From NCBI GenBank assembly GCA_023133485.1, contig JAGLWK010000006.1, forward strand, positions 12,218 to 76,217: a DNA stretch of 64,000 bases, written 5' to 3'. Positions 14,910-35,290 of this stretch are shown piece after piece. The position numbers and the translations under genes are program-made. The notes beneath the pieces were generated by a model. It was not told the DNA's origin and did no database searches. It saw nothing but the letters and a program-made list of their open reading frames with translations. Numbering within the stretch: position 1 is the first letter of the stretch; each line of letters opens with the position of its first letter. Source of the stretch: Bacteroidales bacterium. GTDB lineage: Bacteria > Bacteroidota > Bacteroidia > Bacteroidales > B39-G9.

Positions 14910-14935
14910 TTAGTGTTTGTCTATAAAGTTGATAA

Positions 14936-15018
14936 AAACCCTCGGGGTTTAATAAAATTATAAAAATATAAATTGTAAAATATTTGTTTTCAATTAATTA
15001 GTAAAACTCCGAGGGTTT
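14936..15018. repeat. second copy of the reverse-complementary hairpin pair
   Basis: AAACCCTCGGGGTTT (14936-14950) and AAACTCCGAGGGTTT (15004-15018). The single C>T change keeps pairing as a G-U wobble. Confidence 0.55.
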
Positions 15019-15065
15019 GATTATAAAGTCCGAAAATTCTATTTCCTAAACTAAAATTATATATC

Positions 15066-18000
15066 ATGAAAAAATTATTATTTATTATTATTTCGTTATT
15101 AGTAAACATCTGTTTATTTGCTCAAACTCCCCAATCTTTTAATTATCAGACAATTATTAGAAACAGTTCAGGAGAGATCATAGCAAATCAAAATGTGAGC
15201 ATACAGATAAGTATCTTATTTGGTAGTATTGATGCAAGTGCTGTTTATACCGAAACACATCTGGATACAACAAACCAATTTGGTCTGATAAACCTTAAAA
15301 TAGGAGAAGGGACCACAACATATGACTTTTCTGCAATTGATTGGTCTAATACCCCTGCTTTCATAAAAATTGAATTAGATGTGAATGGTGGAAGCGATTA
15401 TCAGGAAATGGGAGTATCACAATTACTTTCAGTGCCTTATGCATTATATTCAAAAAATACCGAAAATATTGATGATGCAGATGCTGACCCTGAAAACGAA
15501 ATTCAGGACTTACAAATAAATGGTAATATATTAACAATAACTCTAAATGGCACAGCCACCGAAATTGATTTAAGCCAATATGACCAAAGTGGTATGAATA
15601 TTAATGATGCAGATGCTAACCCTGAAAACGAAATTCAGGACTTACAAATAGATGGTAATATTTTAACAATAACCCTAAATGGTACAGCTACAGAAATTGA
15701 TTTAAGTTCTTATATTGACAATACTGATAATCAAGAACTTAGCATAATTAATGATACCCTTAGTATTGCAGGTGGAACAAATATTATTGATTTAAGCATA
15801 TACGACCAAAGCGGTATGAATATTAATGATGCAGATGCTGATACAACAAATGAAATTCAAAATTTGGATATTACAGGAAATACTTTGTCAATTTCACAGG
15901 GAAACTCAATAATAATTCCAACAACCCCAAGTATTTGGAGTTCTGACGGTAGTAATATCTTTTATAATCAGGGAAATGTCGGAATTGGTTCCCTAACACC
16001 ATCAGGTAGATTAGAGGTAAAAGGAGATGCTACCGGAAGTCCTGACGATATTTTATTTGGAGTAATAAATAATAATGGTGATACTGTTTTGGCTGTTTAT
16101 CAGGGAGGAGTAAGAATATATGTTGATACTGCTACATCAAAAGCTACAGGTAGTAAAGGCGGATTTGCAGTTGGTGGATTTAATGCAGGGAAATCCAATT
16201 CAATTGAATATTTTAGAGTTACTCCTGATAGTGTGAGAATATATGTTGATACTGCTACGTCAAAAGCAACTGGTAGTAAAGGCGGATTTGCAGTTGGTGG
16301 ATTTAATGCAGGCAAAACAAATGGACTAGAGTTGTTAAGAGTAACAGACGATAGTGTTCGTATTTATGTAAAAAATACTACGTCAAAAGCCACAGGTAGT
16401 AAAGGTGGATTTGCAGTTGGTGGATTTAATGCAGGGAAATCAGGAGTTACAAATTTTTTAGATCTTACACCAAATAATTATTTCATTGGCCACGAAGCAG
16501 GATTTTCAAATACAACAGGATTGTATAACTCATTTATTGGTTATAATTCCGGTTATTCAAATACCATAGGTGAACGCAATATATTTATGGGTTATTATTC
16601 GGGATATTCAAACCTAGATGGATATAACAATCTATTTATTGGAGATTCTTCTGGTTATTCTAATTCAAGTGGTATTCGAAATATTTTCCTCGGTAACCGA
16701 GCAGGAAAAGCAAATACTACAGGATACCAAAATATTGCTATTGGAATGTATGCTGGTTATGAAAATACAATAGGGAATCGTAATGTTTTCATTGGAACCG
16801 CTGCTGGTTATGATAATACAGAGGGAATAACAAATGTGTTTATAGGTAATTTTGCAGGTGGATATAATACCTTAGGTAGCCAAAATGTTTTTATTGGAAG
16901 AACGGCAGGATACCTTAATACAACAGGTTCTAGTAATGTTTATGTTGGTATGGAGGCTGGTTTCAATAGCGATACAGCCCAACAAAATGTATGTATTGGC
17001 ATCCATAGTGGCTACAGTAATACAGGAGGATGGAGCAATGTTTTTGTTGGAGATAATACAGGATTTTCCAATACTACAGGTCACGATAATGTTTTTATAG
17101 GAAGTGGTACAGGTTATTATAACACCATTGGTTGTAATAATACGCTTCTTGGAATTCAAGCAGGTTATTCAAATACAGAAGGAACCAGTAATGTTTTCCT
17201 GGGATCTTTTTCTGGATGGAATAATACTACAGGTAATTATAATATTTACATTGGAGACCATGCTGGTCACGATAGCGATACAGCAGGTTCCAATGTTAGT
17301 ATAGGTTTTTACGCCGGATGTAAAAATGCGGGAGGAGGTAATAATGTTTTTATCGGAGATAATACAGCACAAGAGAACACAACTGGTAGCTCAAATGTTT
17401 TTATAGGAAAAGCAACAGGTGCTGAAAATACTACTGCTAATTATAATACATTCATCGGGAATGAAAGCGGACATAGTAATATAGAAGGGGAACAAAATAC
17501 ATTTTTTGGTGCTTCATCCGGCGTTTGGCACGCGGTTGGTGATAGTAATGTATTCATTGGAGTTGCAAGTGGAGCAAATCATATTAACGGAAGCAGCAAT
17601 ACTATGATAGGACCTTATGCAGGTTCCAATTCAAACGGAAGCGGAAATGTGTTTTTAGGTAATCATGCAGGTAATGACGAACAGGGATCAAATAAATTGT
17701 ATATCGAAAATACAGGACATGATAGTGCAAATGCATTGATCTATGGTGAGTTTGATAATGATATTCTTCGCTTTAATGCAGATGTAACTATAAAAGGAAA
17801 TCTAACTATTAAAGGCTCTGATAATTATAATTTGTTCCTTGGTGATTCTGCCGGTTATTTCAATTCTTCAGGTCAACAAAATACTTTTATTGGTACAGAA
17901 GCAGGAAATTTAAATAGCACAGGTTCCAAAAATGTATTCTTAGGAGCCTGGGCAGGAGAGTCTAATACTTTTGGTAGCAATAATACTTTCATGGGAAGAG

Positions 18001-18749
18001 CAGCAGGTTGTTCTAATACTGAGGGTAATGGTAATATATTTCTGGGAGACTGTGCAGGTGTTTATAATTCTACAGGAAGTGGAAATGTCTTCATGGGAAA
18101 TGGGACCGGATATGATAACACAGTTGGTGATTCAAGTGTATTTATTGGATACAATGCAGGTCGTTACGAAACGGCATCATACCGGTTGTATATTGAAAAT
18201 AGCCAGTCTGATAGCGAAAATGCCCTGATTTATGGTGAATTTGATAATGACAGTCTTTGGTTAAATGCTGATGTAAAAATCAAAAATTCATTAAGCGTTG
18301 GTGGAAATGTTGGTATTGGCACTATCATCCCCGATAAACTATTACATGTTGCCGGTGATGCAAGAATAGAAGGAGACATTTATTGGGGTACAGCAGAAGA
18401 TATATATATTAAACCAGACTTTGTTTTTAATATTGATTATCAAGATAATTATCAGATTCTTGATATTGAAAAATTTATAAAGAAAAATAATCATTTGCCT
18501 TGGTTAACTTCAGCCAAAGATGAAAACGATGGAATAAACATGACACGAATGCAGTTTGAAACACTCGAAGCAGTTGAAAATCTCCAACTACAAGTAATTG
18601 AGTTAAAAAAGGAAAATGAAAGGCAAAAAGAAATAAATAATAATTTACAACAGGCAAATTCCGGAAAGTATAATGAAATTAATGAATTAAAACAACTAAT
18701 TAATGAATTAAAACAACTAATTGATGATAAATTTTCTGAAAGTCATTAA
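15066..18749 (+). CDS. giant secreted beta-solenoid repeat protein, tail-fibre-like, HLPW-type C-terminal module (type C), two neck motifs
   Basis: 1227 aa with the same signal peptide and N-domain, and extra DADA(D/N)PENEIQDLQI.GNILTITLNGTATEIDLS units. It has two LYIEN...ALIYGEFDND necks (~17685-17820 and ~18178-18290). The C-terminus is DFVFNIDYQDNYQILDIEKFIKKNNHLPWLTSAKDENDGINMTRMQFETLEAVENLQLQVIELKKEN, with no SDKR.K S74 motif. Confidence 0.8.
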   Translation: MKKLLFIIISLLVNICLFAQTPQSFNYQTIIRNSSGEIIANQNVSIQISILFGSIDASAVYTETHLDTTNQFGLINLKIGEGTTTYDFSAIDWSNTPAFIKIELDVNGGSDYQEMGVSQLLSVPYALYSKNTENIDDADADPENEIQDLQINGNILTITLNGTATEIDLSQYDQSGMNINDADANPENEIQDLQIDGNILTITLNGTATEIDLSSYIDNTDNQELSIINDTLSIAGGTNIIDLSIYDQSGMNINDADADTTNEIQNLDITGNTLSISQGNSIIIPTTPSIWSSDGSNIFYNQGNVGIGSLTPSGRLEVKGDATGSPDDILFGVINNNGDTVLAVYQGGVRIYVDTATSKATGSKGGFAVGGFNAGKSNSIEYFRVTPDSVRIYVDTATSKATGSKGGFAVGGFNAGKTNGLELLRVTDDSVRIYVKNTTSKATGSKGGFAVGGFNAGKSGVTNFLDLTPNNYFIGHEAGFSNTTGLYNSFIGYNSGYSNTIGERNIFMGYYSGYSNLDGYNNLFIGDSSGYSNSSGIRNIFLGNRAGKANTTGYQNIAIGMYAGYENTIGNRNVFIGTAAGYDNTEGITNVFIGNFAGGYNTLGSQNVFIGRTAGYLNTTGSSNVYVGMEAGFNSDTAQQNVCIGIHSGYSNTGGWSNVFVGDNTGFSNTTGHDNVFIGSGTGYYNTIGCNNTLLGIQAGYSNTEGTSNVFLGSFSGWNNTTGNYNIYIGDHAGHDSDTAGSNVSIGFYAGCKNAGGGNNVFIGDNTAQENTTGSSNVFIGKATGAENTTANYNTFIGNESGHSNIEGEQNTFFGASSGVWHAVGDSNVFIGVASGANHINGSSNTMIGPYAGSNSNGSGNVFLGNHAGNDEQGSNKLYIENTGHDSANALIYGEFDNDILRFNADVTIKGNLTIKGSDNYNLFLGDSAGYFNSSGQQNTFIGTEAGNLNSTGSKNVFLGAWAGESNTFGSNNTFMGRAAGCSNTEGNGNIFLGDCAGVYNSTGSGNVFMGNGTGYDNTVGDSSVFIGYNAGRYETASYRLYIENSQSDSENALIYGEFDNDSLWLNADVKIKNSLSVGGNVGIGTIIPDKLLHVAGDARIEGDIYWGTAEDIYIKPDFVFNIDYQDNYQILDIEKFIKKNNHLPWLTSAKDENDGINMTRMQFETLEAVENLQLQVIELKKENERQKEINNNLQQANSGKYNEINELKQLINELKQLIDDKFSESH

Positions 18750-18822
18750 ATAATAATCTAATGAATACTATAATTCAAAAAATATTACAAAAATTCAATT
18801 TTCTAAACTAAAATTATAAATC

Positions 18823-21800
18823 ATGAAAAAATTATTATTTATTGTTATTTCTTTATTAGTAAATATCTGTTTATTTGCTCAAACTCCCCAATCTTTTAAT
18901 TATCAGACAATTATTAGAAATAGTTCAGGGGAAATCATAGTAAATCAAAATGTGAGCATGCAGATAAGTATATTGTTTGGCAGTATTGATGCAAGTGCTG
19001 TTTATACTGAAACACATCAAGACACAACAAATCAATTTGGATTGATAAACCTTAAAATAGGAGAAGGGACTACAACAGATGACTTTTCTGCAATTGATTG
19101 GGCTAATAATCCTGCTTTCATAAAAATTGAATTAGATATAAATGGTGGAAGCAATTATCAGGAAATGGGAGTATCGCAATTACTTTCAGTGCCTTATGCA
19201 TTATATTCAAAAAATACAGAAAATATTAATGATGCAGATGCTGATCCTGAAAACGAAATTCAGGACTTACAAATAGATGGTAATATTTTATCAATAACTC
19301 TAAATGGTACAGCTACTGAAATTGATTTAAGTCAATATGACCAAAGTGGTATGAATATTAATGATGCAGATGCTGACCCTGAAAACGAAATTCAGGACTT
19401 GCAAATAGATGGTAATATTTTAACAATATCTCTAAATGGTACAGCTACAGAAATTGATTTAAGTTCTTATATTGACAATACTGATAATCAGGAACTTAAC
19501 TTAAGTAATGATACCCTTAGTATTTCAGGCGGAACAAATACTATTGATTTAAGTATATACGACCAAAGTGGTATAAATATTAATGATGCAGATGCTGATA
19601 CAACAAATGAAATTCAAAATTTGGATATTACAGGGAATACCTTGTCAATTACACAGGGAAACTCAATAATAATTCCAACAACCGAAAATGTTTGGAGTTC
19701 TGACGGTAGTAATATCTTTTATAATCAGGGAAATGTTGGAATAGGCTCATTAACACCATCAGGTAGATTAGAGGTAAAAGGAGATGTTACAGGAAGTCCT
19801 GACGATATTTTATTTGGAGTAATAAATAATAATGGTGATACTGTTTTGGCTGTTTATCAGGGAGGAGTAAGAATATATGTTGATACTGCTACATCAAAAG
19901 CTACAGGTAGTAAAGGAGGATTTGCAGTTGGTGGATTTAATGCAGGGAAATCCAATTCAGTTGAATATCTTAGAGTAACTCCGGACAGTGTTAGAATATA
20001 TGTTGATACTGCTTCATCAAAAGCAACCGGTAGTAAAGGAGGTTTTGCTGTAGGTGGTTTGAATGCAGGCAAAACAAATGGACTGGAGTTGTTAAGAGTA
20101 ACAGACGATAGTGTACGTATTTATGTAAAAAATGCTACGTCAAAAGCCACAGGTAGTAAAGGTGGTTTTGCAGTTGGAGGTTTTAATGCAGGAAAATCAG
20201 ATGCTGTTAATTTTTTAGATCTTACACCAAAAAATTATTTAATTGGACACAGAGCTGGTCAGTCAATTACGGATGGAGATTATAATACCTTTTTCGGATA
20301 CGAAAGTGGTATATCAAATACATCAGGATATAATAATGTTTTCCTTGGTTATAATAGTGGATATATGAATACTACTGGTGCGCAAAATATCTTTATCGGC
20401 AAAAATTCTGGATACGATAATATTTCCGGTTTAGGAAATGTTTGTCTTGGTACTTTTACAGGCATGAATCTTGAAAATGCAAATTATAATGTATTTATTG
20501 GCGATGGCGCAGGAAAAACAGACTCTACAGGAAGCAATAATATTTTTATTGGCAGTTCTTCAGGTGCTGATAATTTGATAGGAACAGAAAATATATTTCT
20601 TGGAACAAATTCCGGTATTCATAATATTGATGGGGATAATAATATCTTTATCGGTAATAATTCAGGAAACTTTAACGAACAAGGAGAATATAATACATTT
20701 ATAGGATATAGAAGCGGGTATAAAAATACAACAGGCAACAGAAATCTTTTTCTTGGATATCAATGTGGTCATGAAAATATAATAGGCGACAAAAATCTTT
20801 TTATTGGTTATGAATGTGGTTATGAAAATGATTCTGCAAGTTATAATCAATTTATTGGTTACCAGTGTGGATACAATAATAGATTTGCTAAGTATAATAC
20901 ATTTATCGGATACATGTGTGGTTATTATAATACAGGAATATTAAGTAAACCCGATAGCGGATCTTATAATGTTTTTATCGGAAAACAATGTGGCTATAGT
21001 AATACAATAGGAAACAAAAATGTTTTTCTTGGTTATGAAAGTGGTTATTCAAATACAGATGGAGTTAATAATGTTTTTATAGGTTCAAAAACCGGTAGGA
21101 GTAACACAAGTGGTTTTAATAATGTTTTCCTCGGAAATAATGCAGGATATATGAATACAGAGGGAGACAGAAATGTTTTCCTCGGAAATACTGCAGGTTT
21201 CTCCAATACATCTGCATATCATAATATTTTTATCGGAGAAGCTGCCGGTTATGGTAATAAAGACGGAAGGTATAATATTTTTATTGGCTCAACTGCGGGT
21301 TATTATACCGATTCGGCAAATTCTAATATTTTTATAGGAACTGATGCAGGAGAATCTAATATAAATGGTGCAGGGAATGTTTTTATAGGTCAAGGTGCAG
21401 GAGTTCGTCATAAGGAAGGTGATAATAATGTGTTTCAGGGAATATTTGCAGGATATGAAGACACTTCAGGTGTTTATAATGTTTATATAGGAAACCGTGC
21501 AGGAATGGATAACATAACAGGACAAAGAAATGTTCTTTTAGGATGTTATGCAGGAGGAAATAGTCCAACAGGTAATAAAAATGTTTTTATTGGGAACTTC
21601 GCAGGATATAACGAAACTAATTCTGAGCGATTATATATTGAAAATTCAAGTACTGATTCAACCCAAGCACTTATTTATGGAGAATTTGATAATGATAGCC
21701 TTTGGTTCAATGCCGATGTAAAAATCAAGAATTCATTAAGCGTTGGTGGAAATGTTGGTATTGGCACTGTAACACCAGATAAACTATTACATGTTGCTGG

Positions 21801-22164
21801 TAATGCAAGAATAGAAGGAGACATTTATTGGGGTACAGCAGAAGATATATATATTAAACCAGACTTTGTTTTTAATATTGATTATCAAGATAATTATCAG
21901 ATTCTTGATATTGAAAAATTTATAAAGAAAAATAATCATTTGCCTTGGGTAACTTCAGCCAAAGATGAAAACGATGGAATAAACATGACACGAATGCAGT
22001 TTGAAACACTCGAAGCAGTTGAAAATCTCCAACTACAAGTAATTGAGTTAAAAAAGGAAAATGAAAGGCAAAAAGAACTGATTAATAATTTACAACAGGC
22101 AAATTCCGAAAAGTATAATGAATTAAGACAACTAATTGATGATAAATTTTTCGAAGGTCATTAA
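18823..22164 (+). CDS. giant secreted beta-solenoid repeat protein, tail-fibre-like, HLPW-type C-terminal module (type C)
   Basis: 1113 aa. The N-terminal ~470 aa and C-terminal ~170 aa are near-identical to gene 15066..18749, while the central repeat block is divergent (more Cys/Tyr-containing repeats such as GYQCGYNN). Confidence 0.8.
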   Translation: MKKLLFIVISLLVNICLFAQTPQSFNYQTIIRNSSGEIIVNQNVSMQISILFGSIDASAVYTETHQDTTNQFGLINLKIGEGTTTDDFSAIDWANNPAFIKIELDINGGSNYQEMGVSQLLSVPYALYSKNTENINDADADPENEIQDLQIDGNILSITLNGTATEIDLSQYDQSGMNINDADADPENEIQDLQIDGNILTISLNGTATEIDLSSYIDNTDNQELNLSNDTLSISGGTNTIDLSIYDQSGININDADADTTNEIQNLDITGNTLSITQGNSIIIPTTENVWSSDGSNIFYNQGNVGIGSLTPSGRLEVKGDVTGSPDDILFGVINNNGDTVLAVYQGGVRIYVDTATSKATGSKGGFAVGGFNAGKSNSVEYLRVTPDSVRIYVDTASSKATGSKGGFAVGGLNAGKTNGLELLRVTDDSVRIYVKNATSKATGSKGGFAVGGFNAGKSDAVNFLDLTPKNYLIGHRAGQSITDGDYNTFFGYESGISNTSGYNNVFLGYNSGYMNTTGAQNIFIGKNSGYDNISGLGNVCLGTFTGMNLENANYNVFIGDGAGKTDSTGSNNIFIGSSSGADNLIGTENIFLGTNSGIHNIDGDNNIFIGNNSGNFNEQGEYNTFIGYRSGYKNTTGNRNLFLGYQCGHENIIGDKNLFIGYECGYENDSASYNQFIGYQCGYNNRFAKYNTFIGYMCGYYNTGILSKPDSGSYNVFIGKQCGYSNTIGNKNVFLGYESGYSNTDGVNNVFIGSKTGRSNTSGFNNVFLGNNAGYMNTEGDRNVFLGNTAGFSNTSAYHNIFIGEAAGYGNKDGRYNIFIGSTAGYYTDSANSNIFIGTDAGESNINGAGNVFIGQGAGVRHKEGDNNVFQGIFAGYEDTSGVYNVYIGNRAGMDNITGQRNVLLGCYAGGNSPTGNKNVFIGNFAGYNETNSERLYIENSSTDSTQALIYGEFDNDSLWFNADVKIKNSLSVGGNVGIGTVTPDKLLHVAGNARIEGDIYWGTAEDIYIKPDFVFNIDYQDNYQILDIEKFIKKNNHLPWVTSAKDENDGINMTRMQFETLEAVENLQLQVIELKKENERQKELINNLQQANSEKYNELRQLIDDKFFEGH

Positions 22165-22222: not shown

Positions 22223-22237
22223 GTGATCCAGCTGGGT
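22223..22237. repeat. attL core (duplicate of tRNA-Lys 3' end)
   Basis: Identical to 41714-41728. The following bases CTTGAACCTGAAT resemble tRNA TTCGAACCCAGGA with mismatches. Confidence 0.75.
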
Positions 22238-22344
22238 CTTGAACCTGAATTGTTGCAACGTTCGTGTTTGTTGTGTTTGTAAAATATTTAAAACTCAATC
22301 GTTAAACAATTGGTAAACATTTGTTGGTTTATTGTTTTTTTTTT

Positions 22345-22889
22345 TTTGATAGCAAAAAACTACCCGGCTAAATCTTGGATTAATTTATTTGATAACAAAT
22401 AAATTAACCGGTTAAAAGTCGATTTTTTATCATATTTTTTATGATAGCAAAAAAAACCCAAGCTCTTTCCGATCTGATTTTTTTTGATAGTAAAATTATT
22501 TTTTATTTAATGATCTTTTTTTATTAGATTTTTTTAATAGTAAAAACTTAATATTCAGTACCGGACCTTTTTAATATTTGATAGCAAAAAGCGCACCGGG
22601 ACAAAAGCCCGATAGAGCTATTTGATAGCAAAACTGTTTTTAATATAATAAGTTCCTGTTCTCATGAGATTAATTGCCGGTATTTTTGATAGTAAAATTA
22701 TTTTTTATTTAATGATCTTTTTTTATTAGATTTTTTTAATAGTAAAAACTTAATATTCAGTACCGGACCTTTTTAATATTTGATAGCAAAAAGCGCACCG
22801 GGACAAAAACTCGATAGAGCTATTTGATAGCAAAACTATTTTTAATATAATAGGATCTTGTGCCCATGAGATTAATTGCCGGTATTTTT
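22345..22889. repeat. array of 12 same-orientation copies of TTTGATAGCAAAA-type 13-mer, including a 202-bp tandem duplication
   Basis: Motif starts are at 22345, 22388, 22440, 22483, 22533, 22577, 22621, 22685, 22735, 22779, 22823 and 22877. Variants are TTTGATAACAAAT, TATGATAGCAAAA, TTTGATAGTAAAA, TTTAATAGTAAAA and TTTAATAGCAAAA. Starts 4-7 repeat as 8-11 exactly 202 bp later. Most spacers contain CCGG. Confidence 0.85.
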
Positions 22890-22904
22890 AATAGCAAAAT
22901 CATT

Positions 22905-23018
22905 TTATATCGTTATAATTCCCAAAAAATGCAAAACCAAAACAATTGCTAAAATAATTAAGCCAATATAAAGGTTTGCTAACAGGTATTTTTTTCGTGA
23001 TGTATAACGCTTTTTCAT
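22905..23018 (-). CDS. 37-aa basic-N-terminus single-TM peptide (not in ORF track)
   Basis: Read on the minus strand it gives MKKRYTSRKKYLLANLYIGLIILAIVLVLHFLGIITI*. Its ATG overlaps the TGA of the upstream ORF as ATGA (23018-23015), which suggests translational coupling. Confidence 0.45.
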   Translation of the reverse strand: MKKRYTSRKKYLLANLYIGLIILAIVLVLHFLGIITI

Positions 23019-23512
23019 TGTTTGTTAAATTCAAGATTATTAGCTTTGTCTTGTAAAATTATAGCATTTGCGTTTTTTATAATGTTTATTATATCTCTTA
23101 AAAGAATTTGGTCAATTTCTATTAATTTATTTTCATTTTCATTTTCGTTTTTCTTTTTAAATACAACATTTCCTTTATCAATTATTTTATTAAATTTATC
23201 AATATCATCAATTAATACTTGTGGGTTTATTTTATTATTTTTATCTGCATAATACATGATTTCTTTTTTTTCATCTTTTAATTCACTATTTTTTAACTTA
23301 TGATTTTTAATAATTAATTTTGATAAATATTCTCCGAAACCTAAAAATTCTTTTATTAAAGGGATTTCAAGAAAACATGGTGAGATGTTTATCTTTATTT
23401 GTATTTCTGCAATTTGAATTTTTTCAATTAACTTATCAACATTAAAATAAAAACCATCAATAAAAACTAATGATGAGTTTTTTAGTTCTGTTATAAAATC
23501 TTTTTTTTTCAT
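23015..23512 (-). CDS. hypothetical protein, second gene of repressor operon
   Basis: 165-aa ORF starting 11 bp after the stop of the XRE gene on the same strand. It has no TM helix and no motif I recognise. Confidence 0.5.
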   Translation of the reverse strand: MKKKDFITELKNSSLVFIDGFYFNVDKLIEKIQIAEIQIKINISPCFLEIPLIKEFLGFGEYLSKLIIKNHKLKNSELKDEKKEIMYYADKNNKINPQVLIDDIDKFNKIIDKGNVVFKKKNENENENKLIEIDQILLRDIINIIKNANAIILQDKANNLEFNKQ

Positions 23513-23523
23513 AATTATTTATT

Positions 23524-23874
23524 TTATTTATTTAAAATTTCAATAATTTCATTTTTTGCTTTTAACAATTCTTTCAAATGTTTGTTTTCTGTTTTTATTT
23601 TTTCTATATCATTATAATTAATATCACCACTTATATTATTTTTATTTCCGTTTACTTTATGACCTAAATCAATATTACCATGTGTGTTGTTTTCAAAAAA
23701 ATAAGCAACTGGCACTTCTAAAACTGCAGCAAATTTTATTAAATACTTGCTTTCCATACTATCTCTTGTAATGCATTTATAAAAATTAGCAGACGACATT
23801 CCAACTTTACCACAAAGTTTTGTAATTGGTATTTTTCTTTTTTCTGCTAATATTTTAATTTTTTTTATACTCAT
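23524..23874 (-). CDS. XRE/cI-like helix-turn-helix transcriptional regulator
   Basis: The N-terminus IKILAEKRKIPITKLCGKVGMSSANFYKCITRDSMESKYLIKFAAVLEVPVAYFF fits the HTH_XRE pattern. It is transcribed divergently from the early operon. Confidence 0.75.
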   Translation of the reverse strand: MSIKKIKILAEKRKIPITKLCGKVGMSSANFYKCITRDSMESKYLIKFAAVLEVPVAYFFENNTHGNIDLGHKVNGNKNNISGDINYNDIEKIKTENKHLKELLKAKNEIIEILNK

Positions 23875-23896
23875 TATCAGTTAGATAGAATAATTG

Positions 23897-23939
23897 TGTA
23901 AAATATAAGTGTCAATTATTTGCAATACTGTAAAATATA
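23897..23939. promoter_or_regulatory. candidate operators in divergent cI/cro-like intergenic region
   Basis: TGTAAAATATA occurs twice (23897-23907 and 23929-23939), 32 bp apart, between the divergent starts at 23874 and 23993. Confidence 0.45.
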
Positions 23940-23992
23940 GTATATACTTGTATTGTTAATATAATAATTATTAATCAAAAATCAAACCAATC

Positions 23993-24265
23993 ATGAAAAC
24001 ATTTAGGCAAATTTACTACTGTTTACCCGAAACCATCCAGACAAATTTTAGAAAAAAGCTTATTGAATTGAGCGGAATATCCATTGCAACCTTTTACAAA
24101 TATCTTGGTGAAAGGTCATCTATCCCAAAGTTGACAAAAAGAGAAATTTTTGAATTGTTAAACATTTACGTCAACGAAGCTATCAACGTATTGGAAGATA
24201 TTAAAGAAAATATTTCAATTAAAGATTTATTTACCGAACCGGTAACTGATGGTGTTGAAGTGTAG
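23993..24265 (+). CDS. small HTH-like early regulator (Cro position)
   Basis: 90 aa. The segment LSGISIATFYKYLGERSSIP looks like a helix-turn-helix. It is the first gene of the rightward operon. Confidence 0.5.
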   Translation: MKTFRQIYYCLPETIQTNFRKKLIELSGISIATFYKYLGERSSIPKLTKREIFELLNIYVNEAINVLEDIKENISIKDLFTEPVTDGVEV

Positions 24266-24299
24266 TTCTAATTAATTAAAAATCATTAAAATTAAAATC

Positions 24300-24647
24300 A
24301 TGGATAAAAAATCATATTTAAAAGAAATCAAGTTGCTTGAAAAAGAATTTGAAGATGAAGTTAAATGTTTTATGGAATTACTTAACAGAGTTAATTCTTC
24401 CGAAAGTATTGGGGCTGATGTTGAATTTTCTTTTTCAATAAAAAAAGATGCTGTTTCAAAAACCTTTAGATACAAAATACATGGTTATGGAGAAAATTAT
24501 TTTGTTAAATTTGATAAGGACGATTATTTCACTTTTGATAGTACAAGAGACTATGAAAGGTGTATTGAGTTTTTGGAAGAAATACGTATTGGGATACAAA
24601 AATTCAAGCAATGTTTTTTATTAGACGAAGGCAAAATCCTTTTATAA
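24300..24647 (+). CDS. hypothetical protein
   Basis: 115-aa ORF tightly packed in the rightward operon. Confidence 0.45.
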   Translation: MDKKSYLKEIKLLEKEFEDEVKCFMELLNRVNSSESIGADVEFSFSIKKDAVSKTFRYKIHGYGENYFVKFDKDDYFTFDSTRDYERCIEFLEEIRIGIQKFKQCFLLDEGKILL

Positions 24648-24662
24648 TTTAAACCCGCACCC

Positions 24663-25013
24663 ATGAAACTAACAAAATCAGAAACCGAAGTCATTGAAGC
24701 AATGGAAGAAAGTCAAAAGTCTTTACGTAAGAAAATTGGTTTAAAACAAAGAATTATTTTAGCATACAAAGCCTTTATGATTGAAAACTACAGATTTCAG
24801 CTACCTTATCAATATTATTGCAAATTGGCATTTAAGGCTTATGAGTGTGATAATAATAGGCGAAAATCAAAATGTAATAATCAGGCAAAGGTTGCTTTAG
24901 CTAATCCGTTCGTTGAAATTAAAATAGAAGAATCTGAACATTTTTATCACGTATGTTTAGAGTGTAGTAAAAAATATATTGGAACTGATGGAGAAGATTT
25001 TGATTTTAATTAA
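24663..25013 (+). CDS. hypothetical protein with Cys-pair (zinc-ribbon-like) motifs
   Basis: 116 aa containing CDNNRRKSKC and CLECSKKY. Its N-terminus MKLTKSETEVIEAM is paralogous to the next ORF. Confidence 0.45.
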   Translation: MKLTKSETEVIEAMEESQKSLRKKIGLKQRIILAYKAFMIENYRFQLPYQYYCKLAFKAYECDNNRRKSKCNNQAKVALANPFVEIKIEESEHFYHVCLECSKKYIGTDGEDFDFN

Positions 25014-25046
25014 AGTAAAATCTTTTTATAATTTAAACTCGCACCC

Positions 25047-25262
25047 ATGCAACTAACAAAATCAGAAAGAGAAATTCTTGAAGCAATGAAAGGAAACTTT
25101 GAATTGCCTTTAATATTTAAAGGAGAAATACTTAAAAACCACCAAAGACATTACAATGCCGTTGATAAATTAAAAGAAAAAGGTTTAGTAATGTTGAACG
25201 ACCAAAACATAATGGTTTTTACAAAAAAGTATGTTGATATGTTTTATAATAATAAGGATTAA
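25047..25262 (+). CDS. hypothetical protein (N-terminal paralog of 24663..25013)
   Basis: 71 aa beginning MQLTKSEREILEAM. Its upstream leader ATAATTTAAAC(C/T)CGCACCC-ATG is duplicated. Confidence 0.45.
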   Translation: MQLTKSEREILEAMKGNFELPLIFKGEILKNHQRHYNAVDKLKEKGLVMLNDQNIMVFTKKYVDMFYNNKD

Positions 25263-25263
25263 G

Positions 25264-25602
25264 TTAATCAGTATTATTTAATATGTTTTCAACTTTAATA
25301 ATCATATAAATTAATCCTATGAAAGACAACAAAGCATACCAACATAATCCTTGCGTTAACCAAAATTGCCAACCAGACCAATCGAATGATTTAAAAATTA
25401 AAAAAGCCGGAGCAATTAAACCAATAGTTATAATGGCAAGGATAACCAATATACTTTGGGCTATATTTTGGGCAAATAGTCTTTTTATGTGCTTAATCCA
25501 CCAAAATATCATAAACGTTAAACTAATAGCAGAGAACATAGTAGTCATAAATGCAATTACAATAAATGTGTTTGTGTTCATTATTTCTTTAATTACGTTC
25601 AT
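25264..25602 (-). CDS. multi-pass membrane protein, antisense to surrounding operon (moron-like)
   Basis: 112 aa with about 4 hydrophobic helices (FIVIAFMTTMFSAISLTFMIFWWI, ILVILAIITIGLIAPAFLIF, LCWYALLSFIGLIYMII). The overlapping + strand ORF 25319..25654 looks spurious. Confidence 0.5.
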   Translation of the reverse strand: MNVIKEIMNTNTFIVIAFMTTMFSAISLTFMIFWWIKHIKRLFAQNIAQSILVILAIITIGLIAPAFLIFKSFDWSGWQFWLTQGLCWYALLSFIGLIYMIIKVENILNNTD

Positions 25603-25670
25603 AAGTTTTTTTATTAATTACCGTATAATACGGTTTTATCCTTTTCACTTTTAACAAATATAACAACTTA

Positions 25671-25928
25671 ATGGAATCAAACACAAACAAATTACCATTC
25701 TATCTAATCAATATTGACAAAACTGTTGCTTTCAAAGTTTATGATAACAATTACATTGAAATTGTTGAACTTAAATCTTTTAAAAACTCAAATCTTTACA
25801 CATATTCACAACAAAAAAATGTAAGTAAAATTATTTTAGAAAAAATCATTAACAGTAACACTATAATTGATGAGTTACAATACGAATTACATAAACACAA
25901 AATTGTTAATGCTTTATTACAAACATAA
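25671..25928 (+). CDS. hypothetical protein
   Basis: 85-aa ORF in the rightward operon. Confidence 0.4.
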   Translation: MESNTNKLPFYLINIDKTVAFKVYDNNYIEIVELKSFKNSNLYTYSQQKNVSKIILEKIINSNTIIDELQYELHKHKIVNALLQT

Positions 25929-25954
25929 TGTTTAACTGATGCAAAAACCCGAAA

Positions 25955-26230
25955 ATGCCATTAGAAGAAACACTTGAAGATATTAAGAATGATTTAAAAA
26001 AGTTACTTAACAATAACGATAATGATAAACTACCTGCATGGTTACCTGAATTATTATTAACACCAGGTCAGCTTGCAGATGTTTTAAAAATTTCGTCTCA
26101 GGAAGTAAGACGTAAAATTAAAACAGGAAAGATAAAATCCGTTTCTCACGGGCCAAAAGAATTTGAGTTACGTGTTAAGTACAAAGATTTTATTGATTAT
26201 TTAAAAACTTTAAACAATACAGATGTTTGA
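25955..26230 (+). CDS. excisionase-type (MerR/HTH_17-like) DNA-binding protein
   Basis: LLTPGQLADVLKISSQEVRRKIKTGKIKSV matches the short winged-HTH excisionase pattern. Confidence 0.55.
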   Translation: MPLEETLEDIKNDLKKLLNNNDNDKLPAWLPELLLTPGQLADVLKISSQEVRRKIKTGKIKSVSHGPKEFELRVKYKDFIDYLKTLNNTDV

Positions 26231-26405
26231 TATTCTTAAAAAATCCGTCCATGGTAAACCATTTATATACGATAACAAGCTATATAAAATAGTAATTATC
26301 AAAAAGGAAACTCTTGTTATTGAAAGGTCAGTTGTTAACGGACTTATCAGGCATGAATTACCTATAAATAAAATTACTCAATTAAAAATTTTCACAATCA
26401 AATAA
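26223..26405 (+). CDS. hypothetical protein
   Basis: 60-aa ORF overlapping the previous stop by 8 nt. Confidence 0.35.
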   Translation: MFDILKKSVHGKPFIYDNKLYKIVIIKKETLVIERSVVNGLIRHELPINKITQLKIFTIK

Positions 26406-26439
26406 ATATGTTACATATAAAAACTTTTTTCTGTGTTGT

Positions 26440-26640
26440 GTTTTGTTGGTTAAGGCATGGTTCTTTACTTGGCGGTTGGGAGCCGTGCCTTTTTAAAGAC
26501 TTTACTCCTGGCGTGGTGATTAGAAACCTCACAAAAAGGAGTGGTTCGAAGCAAGCCGGTAGTTTATTTAACTGCCGGCAGCTTTCCAAAGTTATCTTGC
26601 TTTGAAATAAGAAAAGAGTTTCTACGCTGATAAGCGGAAT
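26440..26640. other. G+C-rich hairpin-dense non-coding island (candidate origin or structured RNA)
   Basis: I counted 72/160 G+C (45%) for 26441-26600 against 14/60 (23%) for 26341-26400. Stems include AAGGCATGGTTC/GAGCCGTGCCTT (12 bp), ACTCCT/AGGAGT, GCCGGTAGT/ACTGCCGGC (9 bp), CAAAG/CTTTG and CGCT/AGCG. Only overlapping both-strand ORFs are listed here. Confidence 0.5.
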
Positions 26641-26680
26641 AATAAAAAAAATTATTAATGATATAAACAACTTTAATATT

Positions 26681-27097
26681 ATGGATGGAATTCAAACAGC
26701 AATTGACGGAACTTATACCGTATTTTACAAAGAAATTTGGGACAAAAAATTTAAAAAACAAGTAATAATTAGTGATCCAAAACAAGCAAGTTTTATAACT
26801 AATGAATTAAATAAGCAGGAGATCGTCTCATTACTCACAGGATTTTTAAATTATTATGATAAAATATTTTTAATGTATGGAGATGTCAGAGACAAGAAGA
26901 AAAATATTGTTTTATTATTTAAAAAACTTGATAATATTAAAAAATCTGATATTAATATATTTTTCAAACAAGTTATAGAAGTTCTACCTGAATTTTTTGA
27001 TATAATAACTACAGAAAAAAGCAAATCTTATATAACACAATTTAACAAAATTAACAAAATCAAAGACGTTTGTCAGACGTTTGAAAACGTTGCTTAA
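26681..27097 (+). CDS. hypothetical protein
   Basis: 138-aa ORF immediately upstream of the Rep iterons. Confidence 0.45.
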   Translation: MDGIQTAIDGTYTVFYKEIWDKKFKKQVIISDPKQASFITNELNKQEIVSLLTGFLNYYDKIFLMYGDVRDKKKNIVLLFKKLDNIKKSDINIFFKQVIEVLPEFFDIITTEKSKSYITQFNKINKIKDVCQTFENVA

Positions 27098-27234
27098 ACG
27101 AACGTTTCATTAAGCAAGAAAAAATCAACGTAAATAGCTAATTTTCAACGTCTTAACCCTTCCTTGTTAATAAAGGAACAGGTTTGACATTTAGGACGTT
27201 GCTTAAACGTTTGAAATAGTTGCTTAAACGAACT
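27060..27234. promoter_or_regulatory. iteron/hairpin cluster upstream of Rep
   Basis: TTGCTTAAACG occurs at 27090-27100, 27199-27209 and 27220-27230. An inverted TTAAGCAA at 27110-27117 can form an 8-bp hairpin with copy 1. GACGTTTG occurs twice (27065, 27076) and CGTTTGAAA twice (27078, 27207). Confidence 0.55.
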
Positions 27235-28605
27235 ATGTTTTTTATGAAAAAAAGCTTTGATATAAAAAAATACAACCGGGTTAGGTCAAATGTTGTTTCT
27301 GCTTTAAGGAGAAAAAACCTAAGATTGATAAAAGATGTTGGAAATTTTATAAAAAACAATGATTTACCCGAAGAACAAGTCAATCATTTAAGACGATTAT
27401 GTAGAAATATTGGTTTTTGTGCTTTTTTTTCTCTTTACAGTGATGATTTGGTTAGTGGTGAGAAAAAATATTACAGTAGCTATTCCTGCGATAATAAAAA
27501 TTGCAATATCTGTAATTGGTTAAGACAGAAAAGAATAAGAAGAAAATATACAAAATGGTTTAAAAACAATGAAAAGTTGGTTGTTCTTAATAATAAAAAA
27601 AGGAATGTAAGAAAGATTGTTACAACAACTCAGTATAACGATAAATATAAAAACAATAACAATTATGAATTTATTAAATATTGTGAGTATGATGTAATGA
27701 GTATTACGTTAACCGTGCCGCATTATAAAGATATTGGATTTAATGGAAGTAAATATTATTTTAATGAGATTATTGGACTATTCAGGGATCTTTATAAAAA
27801 CAAAGAATTTAAAGAGTGGGTGTATGGCGGTGAGTATGGAATAGAAGCAACACGGACAGATAAAAACGGTTGGAATATTCACATGCACGGATTATTACTT
27901 GTTAAACGAGAGATACAGAATCGTAATAAGTTGCATAAAGTTATTTTAAAAATATGGAATGAATTATCTGTAAATAAAGAAAGTAAGCGTTTGTTTTTTT
28001 CCCGGGAAGCCATTAGTAAAATAAAAAAATCAAATAAAATGATTGATGAAAATTATATAAATCAATTAAATCCACAAGGTGCAACAATGCTCACTATTGA
28101 AACAATTTATAGTTTAAGGAAAGGCGAAAAAGTAAGAACAAACAATATTGCAAGTGATGCAATGATGAAAGCAGTAAGAGAAGCTATATCATATCATTTT
28201 GAGCCACAATGTTTTGATAAAGACACAAAAGAATTTCGACTTGATGAGTTAGCAGAGATATTACCAAAAGTTTACAGAAAAGTTCTTTACAGAAAATTTG
28301 GTTGTTTTTATGGCGAAAAGGAACTTAACGTTAATTATAAGGAAGAAAGATTATTAGAAGATTTAAAAGATGCAACCGAGATTATTGCAGACGAAGATAC
28401 AGGAGAAATATTAAGCGAATTTGAATTTTTTATATGCGACCCTGCAAGAGTATTTCATAATACCGAAAAGGAACTTGAAATTGTTTTGAGTAAAGAAGCC
28501 AAGAGAGACATATTAAAACTTGAAGCAGGTTCATCGGCAATAGCTCTTGATATTATGAGTCAATTAGTATTAGAGAAAATAAAATCAAAATATACAAACA
28601 ATTAA
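27235..28605 (+). CDS. HUH-type rolling-circle replication initiator (Rep)-like protein
   Basis: It carries the ordered RCR motifs MSITLTVPH (motif 1-like), WNIHMHGLLLV (HUH) and REAISYHFEP (candidate catalytic Tyr), plus an N-terminal Cys cluster CDNKNCNICNW. The ATG at 27235 is preferred to the listed TTG at 27220. Confidence 0.6.
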   Translation: MFFMKKSFDIKKYNRVRSNVVSALRRKNLRLIKDVGNFIKNNDLPEEQVNHLRRLCRNIGFCAFFSLYSDDLVSGEKKYYSSYSCDNKNCNICNWLRQKRIRRKYTKWFKNNEKLVVLNNKKRNVRKIVTTTQYNDKYKNNNNYEFIKYCEYDVMSITLTVPHYKDIGFNGSKYYFNEIIGLFRDLYKNKEFKEWVYGGEYGIEATRTDKNGWNIHMHGLLLVKREIQNRNKLHKVILKIWNELSVNKESKRLFFSREAISKIKKSNKMIDENYINQLNPQGATMLTIETIYSLRKGEKVRTNNIASDAMMKAVREAISYHFEPQCFDKDTKEFRLDELAEILPKVYRKVLYRKFGCFYGEKELNVNYKEERLLEDLKDATEIIADEDTGEILSEFEFFICDPARVFHNTEKELEIVLSKEAKRDILKLEAGSSAIALDIMSQLVLEKIKSKYTNN

Positions 28606-28627
28606 TTATTAATTAAAACCTATAATT

Positions 28628-29050
28628 ATGTTAAAATTACAAGTAATTGGCAATCTTGGTTCAGATGCTAAGGTTAACGAAGTAAACGGACGTAAAGCAA
28701 TTAATTTTAATATTGCTGAAAACCGTAATTATAAAGACAAGGAAGGAATTAAACATGAAGTTACAACATGGTTAAATTGTACAATGTGGAAAGATAATAA
28801 CCAGAGTGTTGAAATTGTCAAGTATTTAAAAAAGGGTACAAAGGTTTATATTGAAGGTTTGCCTGCAGTACAAACTTATGTGAATAAAGAAAAGAAAACA
28901 ATTGGCATGTTTGGTTTGAATGTTAGAAACATTGAGTTGTTAAGTAAAAAAACCGAAGAAGAAAGTACATTTGAAAAACCATCAGAGAAAGTAAATAAAA
29001 GTGATATTTCAGAAGAAGCACTTCCTTCTAATGACGGTATGCCGTTTTAA
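28628..29050 (+). CDS. ssb: single-stranded DNA-binding protein
   Basis: OB-fold SSB pattern MLKLQVIGNLGSDAKVNEVNGRKAINFNIAENR...TWLNCTMW...GTKVYIEG...L, followed by an acidic/Pro tail ending DGMPF. Confidence 0.85.
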   Translation: MLKLQVIGNLGSDAKVNEVNGRKAINFNIAENRNYKDKEGIKHEVTTWLNCTMWKDNNQSVEIVKYLKKGTKVYIEGLPAVQTYVNKEKKTIGMFGLNVRNIELLSKKTEEESTFEKPSEKVNKSDISEEALPSNDGMPF

Positions 29051-29064
29051 TTAAAAATGGGGTT

Positions 29065-29370
29065 ATGAATGAAATAAAAAGCAAAGTAATGATAAGATTA
29101 ACCGATGATGGTTTAAAATTGGTTGAATCTTTAAAAATATCTGTTGATGAAACAAGTATGTCAAAATCTTTTATGAAAGCAGCCGATAAGGTTGTTAATG
29201 AGATACCAAGATTAAAAAACAATAACGAAGCTTTAGAAGCAGAAAATAAACTTTTAAAAGAAGGGTATATGTTACTTTATAAGGTTTTGGAAAAAAAGAA
29301 AAATATTGAAAAAGAACTTGATGAAGTAATGAGGGATAGTAGAAATTTATTATTTATTGATATGTATTAA
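29065..29370 (+). CDS. hypothetical coiled-coil protein
   Basis: 101-aa ORF in the operon after ssb. Confidence 0.45.
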   Translation: MNEIKSKVMIRLTDDGLKLVESLKISVDETSMSKSFMKAADKVVNEIPRLKNNNEALEAENKLLKEGYMLLYKVLEKKKNIEKELDEVMRDSRNLLFIDMY

Positions 29371-29372
29371 TT

Positions 29373-29576
29373 ATGAAATATAAAAACGTTTTTACAGATG
29401 ATATTGTAAATATTATTTTAATTAATAGTAAAATAGTTACTTATATTAAAGAAGAACCACAAATTATAATAGAAGGCAAAAAGGAATTTGTAATAAAAGA
29501 ATTTTCAAAACCTTTACACGTATTTCAAAAATGTTATAATAAAGTTTGTTTTGATAGTAAAATATTTTCAAGATAG
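29373..29576 (+). CDS. hypothetical protein
   Basis: 67-aa ORF starting 2 nt after the previous stop. Confidence 0.4.
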   Translation: MKYKNVFTDDIVNIILINSKIVTYIKEEPQIIIEGKKEFVIKEFSKPLHVFQKCYNKVCFDSKIFSR

Positions 29577-29692
29577 TCTGATGAATATCGGAACCGGAAT
29601 TATTAAAAACAGTTTTGCTATCAAATATTATAACCGGACACAATAACTGGTTAGTTTTTTGTTATCAAAATATAAAATAGTTTAATAAATTA

Positions 29693-29721
29693 AAGCCTGA
29701 GTTTTACTTGGGCTTTTTTTT
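29693..29721 (+). terminator. intrinsic terminator ending the replication module
   Basis: AAGCCTGAGT-ttt-ACTTGGGCTT forms a 10-bp stem with two G-U pairs, followed by TTTTTT. Confidence 0.6.
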
Positions 29722-29766
29722 GTTAATAAAGAAGCAGTTTTTTAAAATCTTACTTAAATTTTACTT

Positions 29767-29895
29767 AAACCTTATCGAAACCTTATTTTGATTTTTTTTG
29801 AAAAAAACAAATAATTTGTAAGATATTAATTATTAATATTTTATAAAAACACAACCCTACCTTAAACCTTATCAAAACCTTATATTAAACCTTAT
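29767..29895 (+). promoter_or_regulatory. AAACCTTAT iterons (2 + 3 copies, 11-12 bp phasing)
   Basis: Copies lie at 29767, 29778, 29864, 29875 and 29887, with an inverted ATAAGG at 29913. A TAttTTTG sequence (Bacteroidetes -7 box form TAnnTTTG) lies at 29930-29937, 20 nt before the ATG at 29957. Confidence 0.5.
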
Positions 29896-29956
29896 AGTAT
29901 ATATGCTTTGTTATAAGGAAAATATTATATATTTTTGAGAAAAACAAAAACAAATT

Positions 29957-30148
29957 ATGTCAGATTATCTAACTCCAAGTGAGATACTGACAAAACACAC
30001 ACAGCTACGTACAATTTGGAACAATAAACAAATAGGTTATTTATTGAATTTAAGACTTGTTAAAGGGAAAAAGTTACAACGAACATGTCTTGTTGACGAA
30101 CAAGATGTATTAAATTTGTATAAATTTGTAAAAAGTTCCAAAAAATAA
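29957..30148 (+). CDS. small hypothetical protein (possible DNA-binding)
   Basis: 63-aa ORF after the iterons, at the head of the structural block. Confidence 0.4.
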   Translation: MSDYLTPSEILTKHTQLRTIWNNKQIGYLLNLRLVKGKKLQRTCLVDEQDVLNLYKFVKSSKK

Positions 30149-30301
30149 AATTTTCTTACCATTTAATTACCAACCATTTATAAACTTTATTAACAGCCTG
30201 TTGATAAATTGAGTAACTACTCCGTAATGGGGAGTACTTGCCATGTATTGAATCAGTGTATAGTTTTGTATTAAAATTAAACTAATTAAAATTTTTTTAT
30301 T

Positions 30302-30781
30302 ATGAAACTATTTAGATTTATAATGGCATTTATGTCTTTGATTTTTCAAAGTGTTTGGAAATTCTCACGTGATTATGTAATACCCGTTATTGATTTTATA
30401 AATGTAATTAAGCAAATGCTTGAAATGGAAGTTGATGTTGCAAAATGTTTACTTAATAAAAAAGCATTTGAATATGATTCTTTTTTTATTGAATATCTTA
30501 ATTGTGCTGAAAGTATTATATATAAAATAATGCGAGCTTTTATTGAGAGCGTTAAAGTTTTGGTACCGGATATTGAAGAAACAAAATGGAACGAAATCTT
30601 ACTCGCCCTTGTGGTTTATATTAAAGACTTATCTAAACATCAAAAAGCATATTTATATTTTAAGCTTGCATCATTAATGGTTTTAAAGTTGGCTCCAGAT
30701 AAATATGAATTACATTCGAATCATAGTGATTTTCTTGTCCAATTTAATTATACATATCGCAAAAACAAAAAGAGACAATAG
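30302..30781 (+). CDS. hypothetical protein with hydrophobic N-terminus
   Basis: 159 aa beginning MKLFRFIMAFMSLIFQSVW. Confidence 0.45.
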   Translation: MKLFRFIMAFMSLIFQSVWKFSRDYVIPVIDFINVIKQMLEMEVDVAKCLLNKKAFEYDSFFIEYLNCAESIIYKIMRAFIESVKVLVPDIEETKWNEILLALVVYIKDLSKHQKAYLYFKLASLMVLKLAPDKYELHSNHSDFLVQFNYTYRKNKKRQ

Positions 30782-31257
30782 TGGGGTTTTTATCTGCAAT
30801 ATTAATTGGCTCCGGTGCCATTGCTGCTGTTTCTTATGTAATCAAGGGACTTAACACACAGGCAACCGGCGATGCTTTAACTTCAAAAATAAAGGAAGTT
30901 ATATTTAAAGGTATTAAGATTCGTAATTTTAATGCTTATGTGAACTTTGATATTTCTTTTGAACATACCAATCCAACAAATAAAAATCTGACTTTTAATT
31001 ATATGTTTCTTGATATGTTTATTGGTGATGAGAATATCGCAGAGATACGAAAATCAGATATGAACAAAACTGTATATGCAAATCAGGTTACAAAGATTAA
31101 AATGCCTGTATCCGTATCTGTAAAAGATTTGGGAGTGTCGGTTATAAAAGTATTCAAATCTGGTAATATTCCCGATAAGATAAAGATAAAAGGGAATATA
31201 AAAGTAAACGATTTTGTAAGTGAGTATAACGAAGAATATCCGTTAAAAAAGCAGTAA
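30781..31257 (+). CDS. N-terminally anchored beta-rich protein
   Basis: The GTG start overlaps the previous stop. It has a TM helix FLSAILIGSGAIAAVSYVI followed by beta-strand-like sequence. Confidence 0.5.
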   Translation: MGFLSAILIGSGAIAAVSYVIKGLNTQATGDALTSKIKEVIFKGIKIRNFNAYVNFDISFEHTNPTNKNLTFNYMFLDMFIGDENIAEIRKSDMNKTVYANQVTKIKMPVSVSVKDLGVSVIKVFKSGNIPDKIKIKGNIKVNDFVSEYNEEYPLKKQ

Positions 31258-31260
31258 TAA

Positions 31261-35289: not shown

Positions 35290-35290
35290 T

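Follow-up and report, generated by a model that had tools for sequence, protein, structure and literature searches.

An orphan gene pair behind the putative repressor of a rolling-circle integrative element from Bacteroidales, with a possible role in host protection

The genes behind the putative repressor

The window analyzed here is a stretch of 64,000 nucleotides (nt), positions 12,218 to 76,217 of contig JAGLWK010000006.1, from a Bacteroidales metagenome-assembled genome (assembly GCA_023133485.1). It carries an integrated element of about 19.5 kb (22246-41713), inserted at a tRNA-Lys gene. The left end of this element holds the gene pair under study: two open reading frames (ORFs) of 165 and 37 amino acids (aa), located behind a helix-turn-helix (HTH) regulator gene. 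The coordinates of all features are listed in Table 1.

The three genes are co-oriented, with a gap of 11 nt followed by an overlap of 4 nt, and the interval that they occupy is the most AT-rich part of the window, with a GC content of 20%. This anatomy was described in a first-pass annotation of the DNA and is present in the sequence; the translation of the small ORF is identical, letter for letter, to the one given there, MKKRYTSRKKYLLANLYIGLIILAIVLVLHFLGIITI. The small ORF had been noted as lying outside the ORF list. Its product is also missing from a collection of 15 billion proteins, so the ORF is unannotated. Neither the terminator scan nor the repeat and hairpin analysis revealed anything terminator-like between the HTH, 165-aa and 37-aa genes. 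Since terminator-like modules are found only after the 37-aa ORF and none lies between the three genes, the ORF would be placed inside the HTH transcript. At the level of sequence, the 11-nt gap, the ATGA overlap, the lack of an internal terminator and the downstream modules are compatible with co-transcription with the repressor.

The 37-aa ORF ends 6 nt ahead of an array of the pseudo-palindrome TTTGCTATCAAA. This motif occurs 17 times in the window, compared with 1.65 copies expected, and 16 of the copies lie within the three large intergenic regions of the element (22336-22906, 29550-29669 and 36877-36986). Within the first of these regions, 202 nt are duplicated in tandem (22481-22682 and 22683-22884), and one module of motif, hairpin and T-run is present in every duplicated unit (22570-22640 and 22772-22842). 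When the regions were aligned, the module was seen to consist of the motif, a sequence-variable hairpin and a T5-6 run that opens a second motif. In every case the module points the way in which the local genes are transcribed, and as RNA it folds into an extended hairpin, with z-scores of -1.3 to -3.1. One copy was flagged by the terminator scan. The modules are read as tandem terminators that close the three transcription units of the element, including the HTH operon; the motif itself could act in termination, in protein binding, or in both. It was absent from all the related loci described below and is thus element-specific. The array was also considered as a set of iterons or as a single-strand origin. 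This was rejected as the main reading, since the copies elsewhere are inverted to follow transcription and a T-run is present after each hairpin.

The HTH protein was compared with Pfam, where HTH_26 (18.6 bits, cutoff 22) and Phage_CI_repr (13.9 bits) scored below threshold, and with PHROG 8, transcriptional regulator, which was matched at 2.5e-5. Used alone in an indexed search, the protein returned only itself, and a hidden Markov model (HMM) built from the related loci recovered it at 1.8e-25. Its syntenic homologues carry HTH_3, HTH_26 or HTH_31. In about 34 loci, the HMM detected a minus-strand XRE-type HTH gene 1.5-4 kb upstream of the gene for the rolling-circle replication protein (Rep), which makes the HTH gene part of the backbone of the element family. 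No Peptidase_S24 match was found in the protein, which has a short coiled-coil-like C-terminal tail instead. The description of the gene as cI-like is thus appropriate for its position and HTH type, and it does not extend to an S24 autocleavage domain or to Pfam scores above threshold. The protein is a putative maintenance repressor, heading a divergent switch. In the switch region, 16-nt direct repeats (23892-23907 and 23924-23939) may serve as operator or promoter elements, and inverted repeats are also present. In the circular form, the gene order is HTH, 165-aa, 37-aa, terminators, attP and integrase (int), all on one strand. This order in the excised circle is the classical layout of a lysogeny module.

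The 165-aa ORF is a real gene and a strict orphan. Its GC content is 18.9%, and it contains a low-complexity NENENE stretch. With about 11% stops among random codons in such AT-rich DNA, an open frame of 165 codons is not a matter of chance (probability of about 3e-9, computed from composition). Its codon usage (0.214) agrees with that of the confident genes of the window (mean of 0.225). Only the protein itself was matched in a word-indexed set of 5.8 billion proteins, and the same result was obtained by an exhaustive HMMER search of 1.84 billion protein representatives. No Pfam family was found at E values up to 0.1, no PADLOC match at E values up to 1, and no PDB sequence match, RexA included. 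Neither a transmembrane (TM) segment nor a signal peptide was predicted in the 165-aa protein, and no lipoprotein signal was predicted in the pair. One match of a sigma-70-type promoter scan inside the gene was disregarded; the scan gave as many matches as expected from shuffled sequence, and the promoter consensus of Bacteroidota is a different one.

The 37-aa peptide has the N-terminus KKRYTSRKK, with a charge of +6, and one TM helix at about residues 12-37, with its hydrophobic segment at residues 18-36. An N-in topology is predicted by the positive-inside rule. No relatives of the product were found, and a degenerate DNA pattern for NLYIGLIILAIV gave no match in metagenome and viral collections.

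The variable slot in related elements

A total of 59 related loci were collected, comprising 51 genomic loci obtained by Rep alignment (nearly all from Bacteroidota), 3 IMG/VR contigs and 5 contigs found by exact look-up. Rep itself has 82 homologues at 29-49% identity. Carriers of relatives include Hymenobacter saemangeumensis, Phaeodactylibacter xiamenensis and Flavilitoribacter nigricans. One relative, L003, is a complete 16.9-kb circle with a 30-nt terminal overlap. This indicates that the element family exists in both free and integrated forms.

The pair had been called passenger genes of the repressor operon, and the relatives support this view, as they hold variable genes in the same position. 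Tightly linked, co-oriented ORFs are located behind the HTH gene in 26 of 33 elements, often with gaps of 3-11 nt or a 4-nt overlap, and 53 of the 57 ORFs found there in the relatives are singletons. Envelope targeting was predicted for 20 of 38 slot ORFs, compared with 104 of 592 backbone ORFs (p = 3e-6). Similarly, lipoprotein-like products account for 12 of 38 slot ORFs and 10 of 592 backbone ORFs (p = 2e-10). The cargo behind or near the HTH gene in the relatives includes many lipoproteins, a Schlafen AlbA_2 protein, an NYN RNase, an outer-membrane-protein beta-barrel-like protein and, nearby, a YafQ toxin pair. By this content, the slot behind the repressor appears to be a hotspot of genes for defence and surface modification. 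Conservation of the pair itself beside XRE repressors, which had been proposed as a check, was not found: neither ORF has a counterpart in the 59 loci. Because neither gene is conserved in these loci, no ordinary lysogeny function is indicated for the pair.

The elements apparently form an undescribed family of Bacteroidota replicons of about 17-20 kb. The family is characterized by an HUH Rep_1-like Rep, a single-stranded DNA-binding protein (SSB), the leftward XRE HTH gene, an HTH_17-like gene of 91 aa and two alternative late-gene modules. No recognizable capsid gene, packaging gene or P-loop ATPase was found in its members, and the late proteins of the relatives gave no capsid or packaging families in PHROGs either. 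In the window element, Rep keeps the invariant HUH histidines and the conserved tyrosines. The 552-aa and 308-aa late proteins are common to the subgroup of L001, L007 and L042-44. A LamG-domain protein of the element matches a 'virion structural' PHROG at 1.8e-7, the sole structural match. The AlphaFold2 model of a 294-aa late protein was unusable, with a pLDDT (predicted local distance difference test) of 34. The element was compared with 50,697 phage records at the DNA and protein levels without a match, single-protein scans of IMG/VR gave no match, and the search of Rfam returned the tRNA only.

The integrase is co-oriented with the HTH operon and adjoins it across attP in the excised circle. 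The 25-nt repeat ATCGTTAAACAATTGGTAAACATTT flanks the attachment (att) core in attP with its two copies, the right one of which overlaps the start codon of the integrase. Its candidate roles are those of an arm-type site for the integrase or of a regulator of int expression.

A protein of 112 aa with three strongly hydrophobic segments is encoded by the lone minus-strand gene among the rightward early genes (25264-25602). Apart from a minus-strand ORF in locus L044 it has no relative, and its gene is a second candidate accessory membrane gene. Just outside attL, and outside the element, four very large proteins of 1401, 1606, 1227 and 1113 aa are encoded on the plus strand (4411-22164). The 1113-aa protein has an N-terminal signal peptide, and the 1227- and 1113-aa proteins, which were tested, carry repeats that match PHROG 'tail spike / virion structural protein' families. 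The four are either host surface proteins or remnants of another element.

Table 1 Features of the element and its left-end locus, with positions counted from the first letter of the window (last row: positions within the related loci).
Feature	Position	Strand	Remarks
attL	22223-22245	+	Displaced copy of the tRNA-Lys 3' end, 21/23 identical to attR
25-nt perfect direct repeat	22298-22322; second copy 41581-41605	+ (first copy)	Unique to the two element ends
Array of the pseudo-palindrome	22336-22906	-	10 same-strand copies; includes the 202-nt tandem duplication
44-aa ORF, TTG start	22900-23034	-	Other frame; spans the whole 37-aa ORF
37-aa ORF	22905-23018	-	ATG overlaps the TGA of the 165-aa ORF as ATGA
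165-aa ORF (KAT68_00570)	23015-23512	-	Starts 11 nt past the HTH stop; soluble, mostly helical
XRE/Cro-C1-type HTH gene	23524-23874	-	116 aa, C-terminal coiled-coil-like tail; first gene of the leftward operon
Divergent intergenic switch region	23875-23992	.	118 nt, between the leftward HTH operon and the rightward early genes
90-aa ORF, Cro-like position	23993-24265	+	First gene of the rightward operon; orphan
HUH Rep (Rep_1-like, 461 aa) and SSB (140 aa)	27220-29050	+	Rolling-circle replication core defining the element family
552-aa protein	31261-32919	+	Conserved Cys-His-Asp transglutaminase-like triad, long basic tail
308-aa protein	36992-37918	+	SH3b-like N-terminal domain, then a TM segment
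Tyrosine integrase	40428-41603	-	Arm-DNA-bind_5, SAM_5 and catalytic domains (Bacteroidota-typical)
tRNA-Lys(UUU)	41714-41787	-	3' end 41714-41736 is attR
Cargo in relatives	L029 97-855; L001 4728-5411; L057 6798-7499; L003 3475-3964

A possible protective role and the competing explanations

In the best explanation, which we hold tentatively, the two genes form a 'moron' cassette of orphan accessory genes, carried in the hypervariable cargo slot that separates the repressor from attP/int, and they probably protect the host by acting at the membrane. A two-component membrane-level exclusion system laid out like the lactococcal SieF7/2AB is favored over a strict Rex-type abortive system. For the function of the pair, we infer the following course. 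One transcript would carry the HTH, 165-aa and 37-aa genes and would be made while the element is quiescent. The 37-aa product would be translated by coupling to the 165-aa gene and would insert N-in as a single-pass inner-membrane peptide, whose basic cytoplasmic N-terminus would contact the soluble 165-aa partner. The pair would then act at the cytoplasmic membrane and shield the carrier cell from incoming phages or competing elements, either by blocking DNA entry or by triggering membrane permeabilization. Entry-level exclusion is argued because the slot of the relatives is biased, family-wide, towards surface proteins. An abortive mechanism by triggered permeabilization, or an addiction mechanism, may still apply, because the partner is cytoplasmic and the peptide is toxin-like. 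A further-reaching claim would be that the pair is a new two-component anti-phage system with a membrane effector among the smallest known, and that the slot, in an undescribed temperate family of rolling-circle elements without capsid genes, is a general hotspot for new envelope-level defence or exclusion genes. This is a long shot.

Several points weigh against the preferred explanation. Searches of Pfam, PHROGs, PADLOC, NCBIfam and PDB sequences returned nothing meaningful for the pair. Neither protein has a homologue anywhere searched, and hence there is no support from conservation or co-occurrence. The AlphaFold2 model of the 165-aa protein, with a pLDDT of 38, was unusable. The expression of the operon in the integrated state is assumed by analogy, and promoters cannot be judged from a scan whose consensus is not that of Bacteroidota. 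In a synonymous-only codon test, the 37-aa ORF gave a likelihood ratio of about 0.9, which is uninformative and gives no support for translation. The overlapping 44-aa TTG ORF, which has no notable features, scored slightly higher on codon usage. The element had been called a prophage, and the integrase, the att repeats and the tRNA-Lys agree with this; however, no capsid, portal or terminase was recognizable in PHROG or Pfam comparisons and no P-loop motif was seen, and the element is at most a putative prophage. Some lactococcal genes at the corresponding position gave no resistance phenotype (PMC7693887).

The codon results also bear on a rival explanation in which only the 165-aa gene is real, as a lone orphan cargo or a decaying gene, and the 37-aa frame stays open by chance within the 3' untranslated region. 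The total codon usage of the 37-aa ORF falls between the distributions of spurious and true genes. In DNA of such composition, 37 open codons arise by chance with a probability of about 0.04 (4%), so the open frame alone is weak evidence. The lack of conservation and the equal or better score of the alternative-frame 44-aa ORF fit a chance frame as well, and the low GC content of the 165-aa gene with its NENENE stretch suggests weak constraint. The synonymous-only test is underpowered for 37 codons, as a plainly spurious antisense ORF outscores real genes, and codon statistics cannot decide which frame over 22900-23034, if any, is translated. Three features of the ORF speak against a chance frame. 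The ATGA overlap uses TGA, the rarest stop codon, which is found at the end of 8 of 46 genes. The space up to the terminator array is filled exactly by the ORF. Among the 118 ATG ORFs of 30-50 aa in the six frames of the whole window, it also stands alone in pairing a strong TM segment with a basic N-terminus (KD19 of at least 2.5 and an N-terminal net charge of at least +4; here +6). We consider the 37-aa ORF moderately likely to be translated, and a lone 165-aa gene followed by a chance frame rather unlikely.

In a Rex-type abortive infection system, the 165-aa protein would sense a phage and activate the 37-aa peptide, the membrane would be depolarized, and the cell would be killed or arrested. 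The size and charge of the peptide are like those of small pore-forming toxins of the Hok or TisB type, and a soluble protein is combined with a membrane product in a translationally coupled layout. The position is also that of lambda rexAB, which is transcribed with cI (PMC11077077), and of CarolAnn 43/44, which is co-expressed with the repressor (PMC6426596). However, no DUF4747 or RexA-like signal was found in the 165-aa protein with Pfam and PADLOC, and one TM helix in 37 aa stands against four in RexB and in Sbash gp31 (PMC6426596). The relatives mostly hold surface lipoproteins at this position, which points to exclusion at the entry level. A Rex-type system is accordingly judged improbable here.

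An addiction module of the toxin-antitoxin (TA) kind would use the hydrophobic peptide as a membrane toxin and the 165-aa protein to neutralize it, and would serve to stabilize the element and not to act against phages. Small peptides with a basic end and a TM helix are typical of membrane toxins, a YafQ-type toxin pair is located near the same region in one relative, and a free circle, the form in which the element is also found, would profit from stabilization. An integrated element, on the other hand, hardly needs it. No TA family was matched in Pfam, PADLOC or NCBIfam, and a toxin that is translated after a larger protein and depends on it would be unusual for the known protein-protein TA pairs. 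We regard this explanation as quite unlikely. Finally, a single gene that was split by an assembly indel or is joined by frameshifting, giving a C-terminally anchored membrane protein of about 200 aa, is suggested by the two abutting frames and by the likeness of the basic stretch and terminal TM helix to a tail anchor, but an in-frame stop two codons upstream of the small ORF's ATG would confine the shift to an 8-nt window and ATGA overlaps are a common coupling device, which leaves this version very improbable indeed.

If functional, the pair would be a sequence-novel system of membrane-acting protection, very compact and from Bacteroidota, a phylum whose prophage-encoded defences have received little study. 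A more useful by-product is the set of about 60 rolling-circle integrative elements with a variable, envelope-protein-rich slot behind the repressor. The slot is a well-defined location in which exclusion and defence genes can be sought, and these elements may be virus-like or plasmid-like in nature.

Comparison with known systems

Type I TA membrane toxins of the Hok, TisB and Fst class are about 30-50 aa long, have one TM helix and are charged at one end. The 37-aa peptide is like them in all three respects. However, these toxins are controlled by antisense RNA and are uncoupled from an upstream protein gene, and no antisense element was identified at the window locus.

The element as a whole was compared with the FLiP-related group of rolling-circle single-stranded DNA viruses, which includes Bacteroidetes prophages that encode an SSB, lack a packaging ATPase and reach about 17 kb (PMC5894146). 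Bacteroidota hosts, a rolling-circle Rep, an SSB, the lack of a packaging ATPase and the size are shared. The Rep of the window element is Rep_1-like, whereas that of the FLiP group is M13 CRI-like. No similarity to the FLiP major capsid protein or Rep was detected by phmmer or hhalign, and hhalign probabilities against FLiP stayed below 30%. The only link found is the FLiP structural lytic enzyme, which has homologues in 8 relatives; the window element itself has none.

In lambda, the rexAB genes follow cI and are transcribed from PRM; their products are RexA, a soluble protein of 31 kDa, and RexB, with four TM helices (PMC11077077). Sbash gp30/31 combine DUF4747 with a four-TM topology, and in CarolAnn the genes 43/44 are expressed together with the repressor (PMC6426596). 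Lambda rexA/rexB, Sbash gp30/31 and CarolAnn gp44/43 resemble the pair as two co-oriented genes directly behind a repressor, with one soluble and one membrane product. They also share with it a presumed expression in the quiescent state (PMC11077077, PMC6426596). RexA and gp30 are DUF4747 proteins of about 31 kDa, whereas the window protein is a 165-aa orphan with no sequence or domain similarity to them. The earlier term 'Rex-like' therefore suits the position of the pair; it does not suit the proteins, since the 165-aa protein has neither DUF4747 nor another domain and one TM helix is predicted rather than the four of RexB. Judged by sequence, membership of the pair in RexAB is rejected.

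The lysogeny-module genes of lactococcal phages are closer architectural precedents than Rex. Extra genes between int and the repressor give superinfection exclusion (Sie) in these phages, among them the small membrane protein Sie2009 and the two-component SieF7/2AB (TP901-1 orf2/3), which consists of a membrane and a soluble protein (PMC7693887). Similarly, ltp, the gene for the lipoprotein Ltp of Streptococcus thermophilus phage TP-J34, is located in the lysogeny module (PMC3952083). The lactococcal Sie genes lie between the repressor and int/attP in the same orientation, as the pair does, on the minus strand throughout. Their products are small and membrane-associated, sometimes with a synergistic soluble partner, and the predicted single-pass 37-aa peptide, provided that it is translated, would be such a product. 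Their content varies among related phages, as it does in the slot described here (PMC7693887). In contrast to the element, their hosts are Gram-positive and they belong to tailed phages; Sie2009 is larger, has an N-terminal anchor and, like the other lactococcal Sie proteins, shows no homology to the pair. The soluble partner in SieF7/2AB has a metalloprotease-like zinc motif that is absent from the window protein. In Pfam, PHROG and PADLOC comparisons, neither product of the pair was homologous to a characterized Sie or Ltp protein. Ltp is a lipoprotein, whereas a lipoprotein signal is lacking in the pair, whose larger protein is cytoplasmic; the Ltp type is matched instead by the lipoprotein-rich cargo of the relatives. 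The pair is thus a sequence-orphan instance of the known 'moron in the immunity region' pattern.

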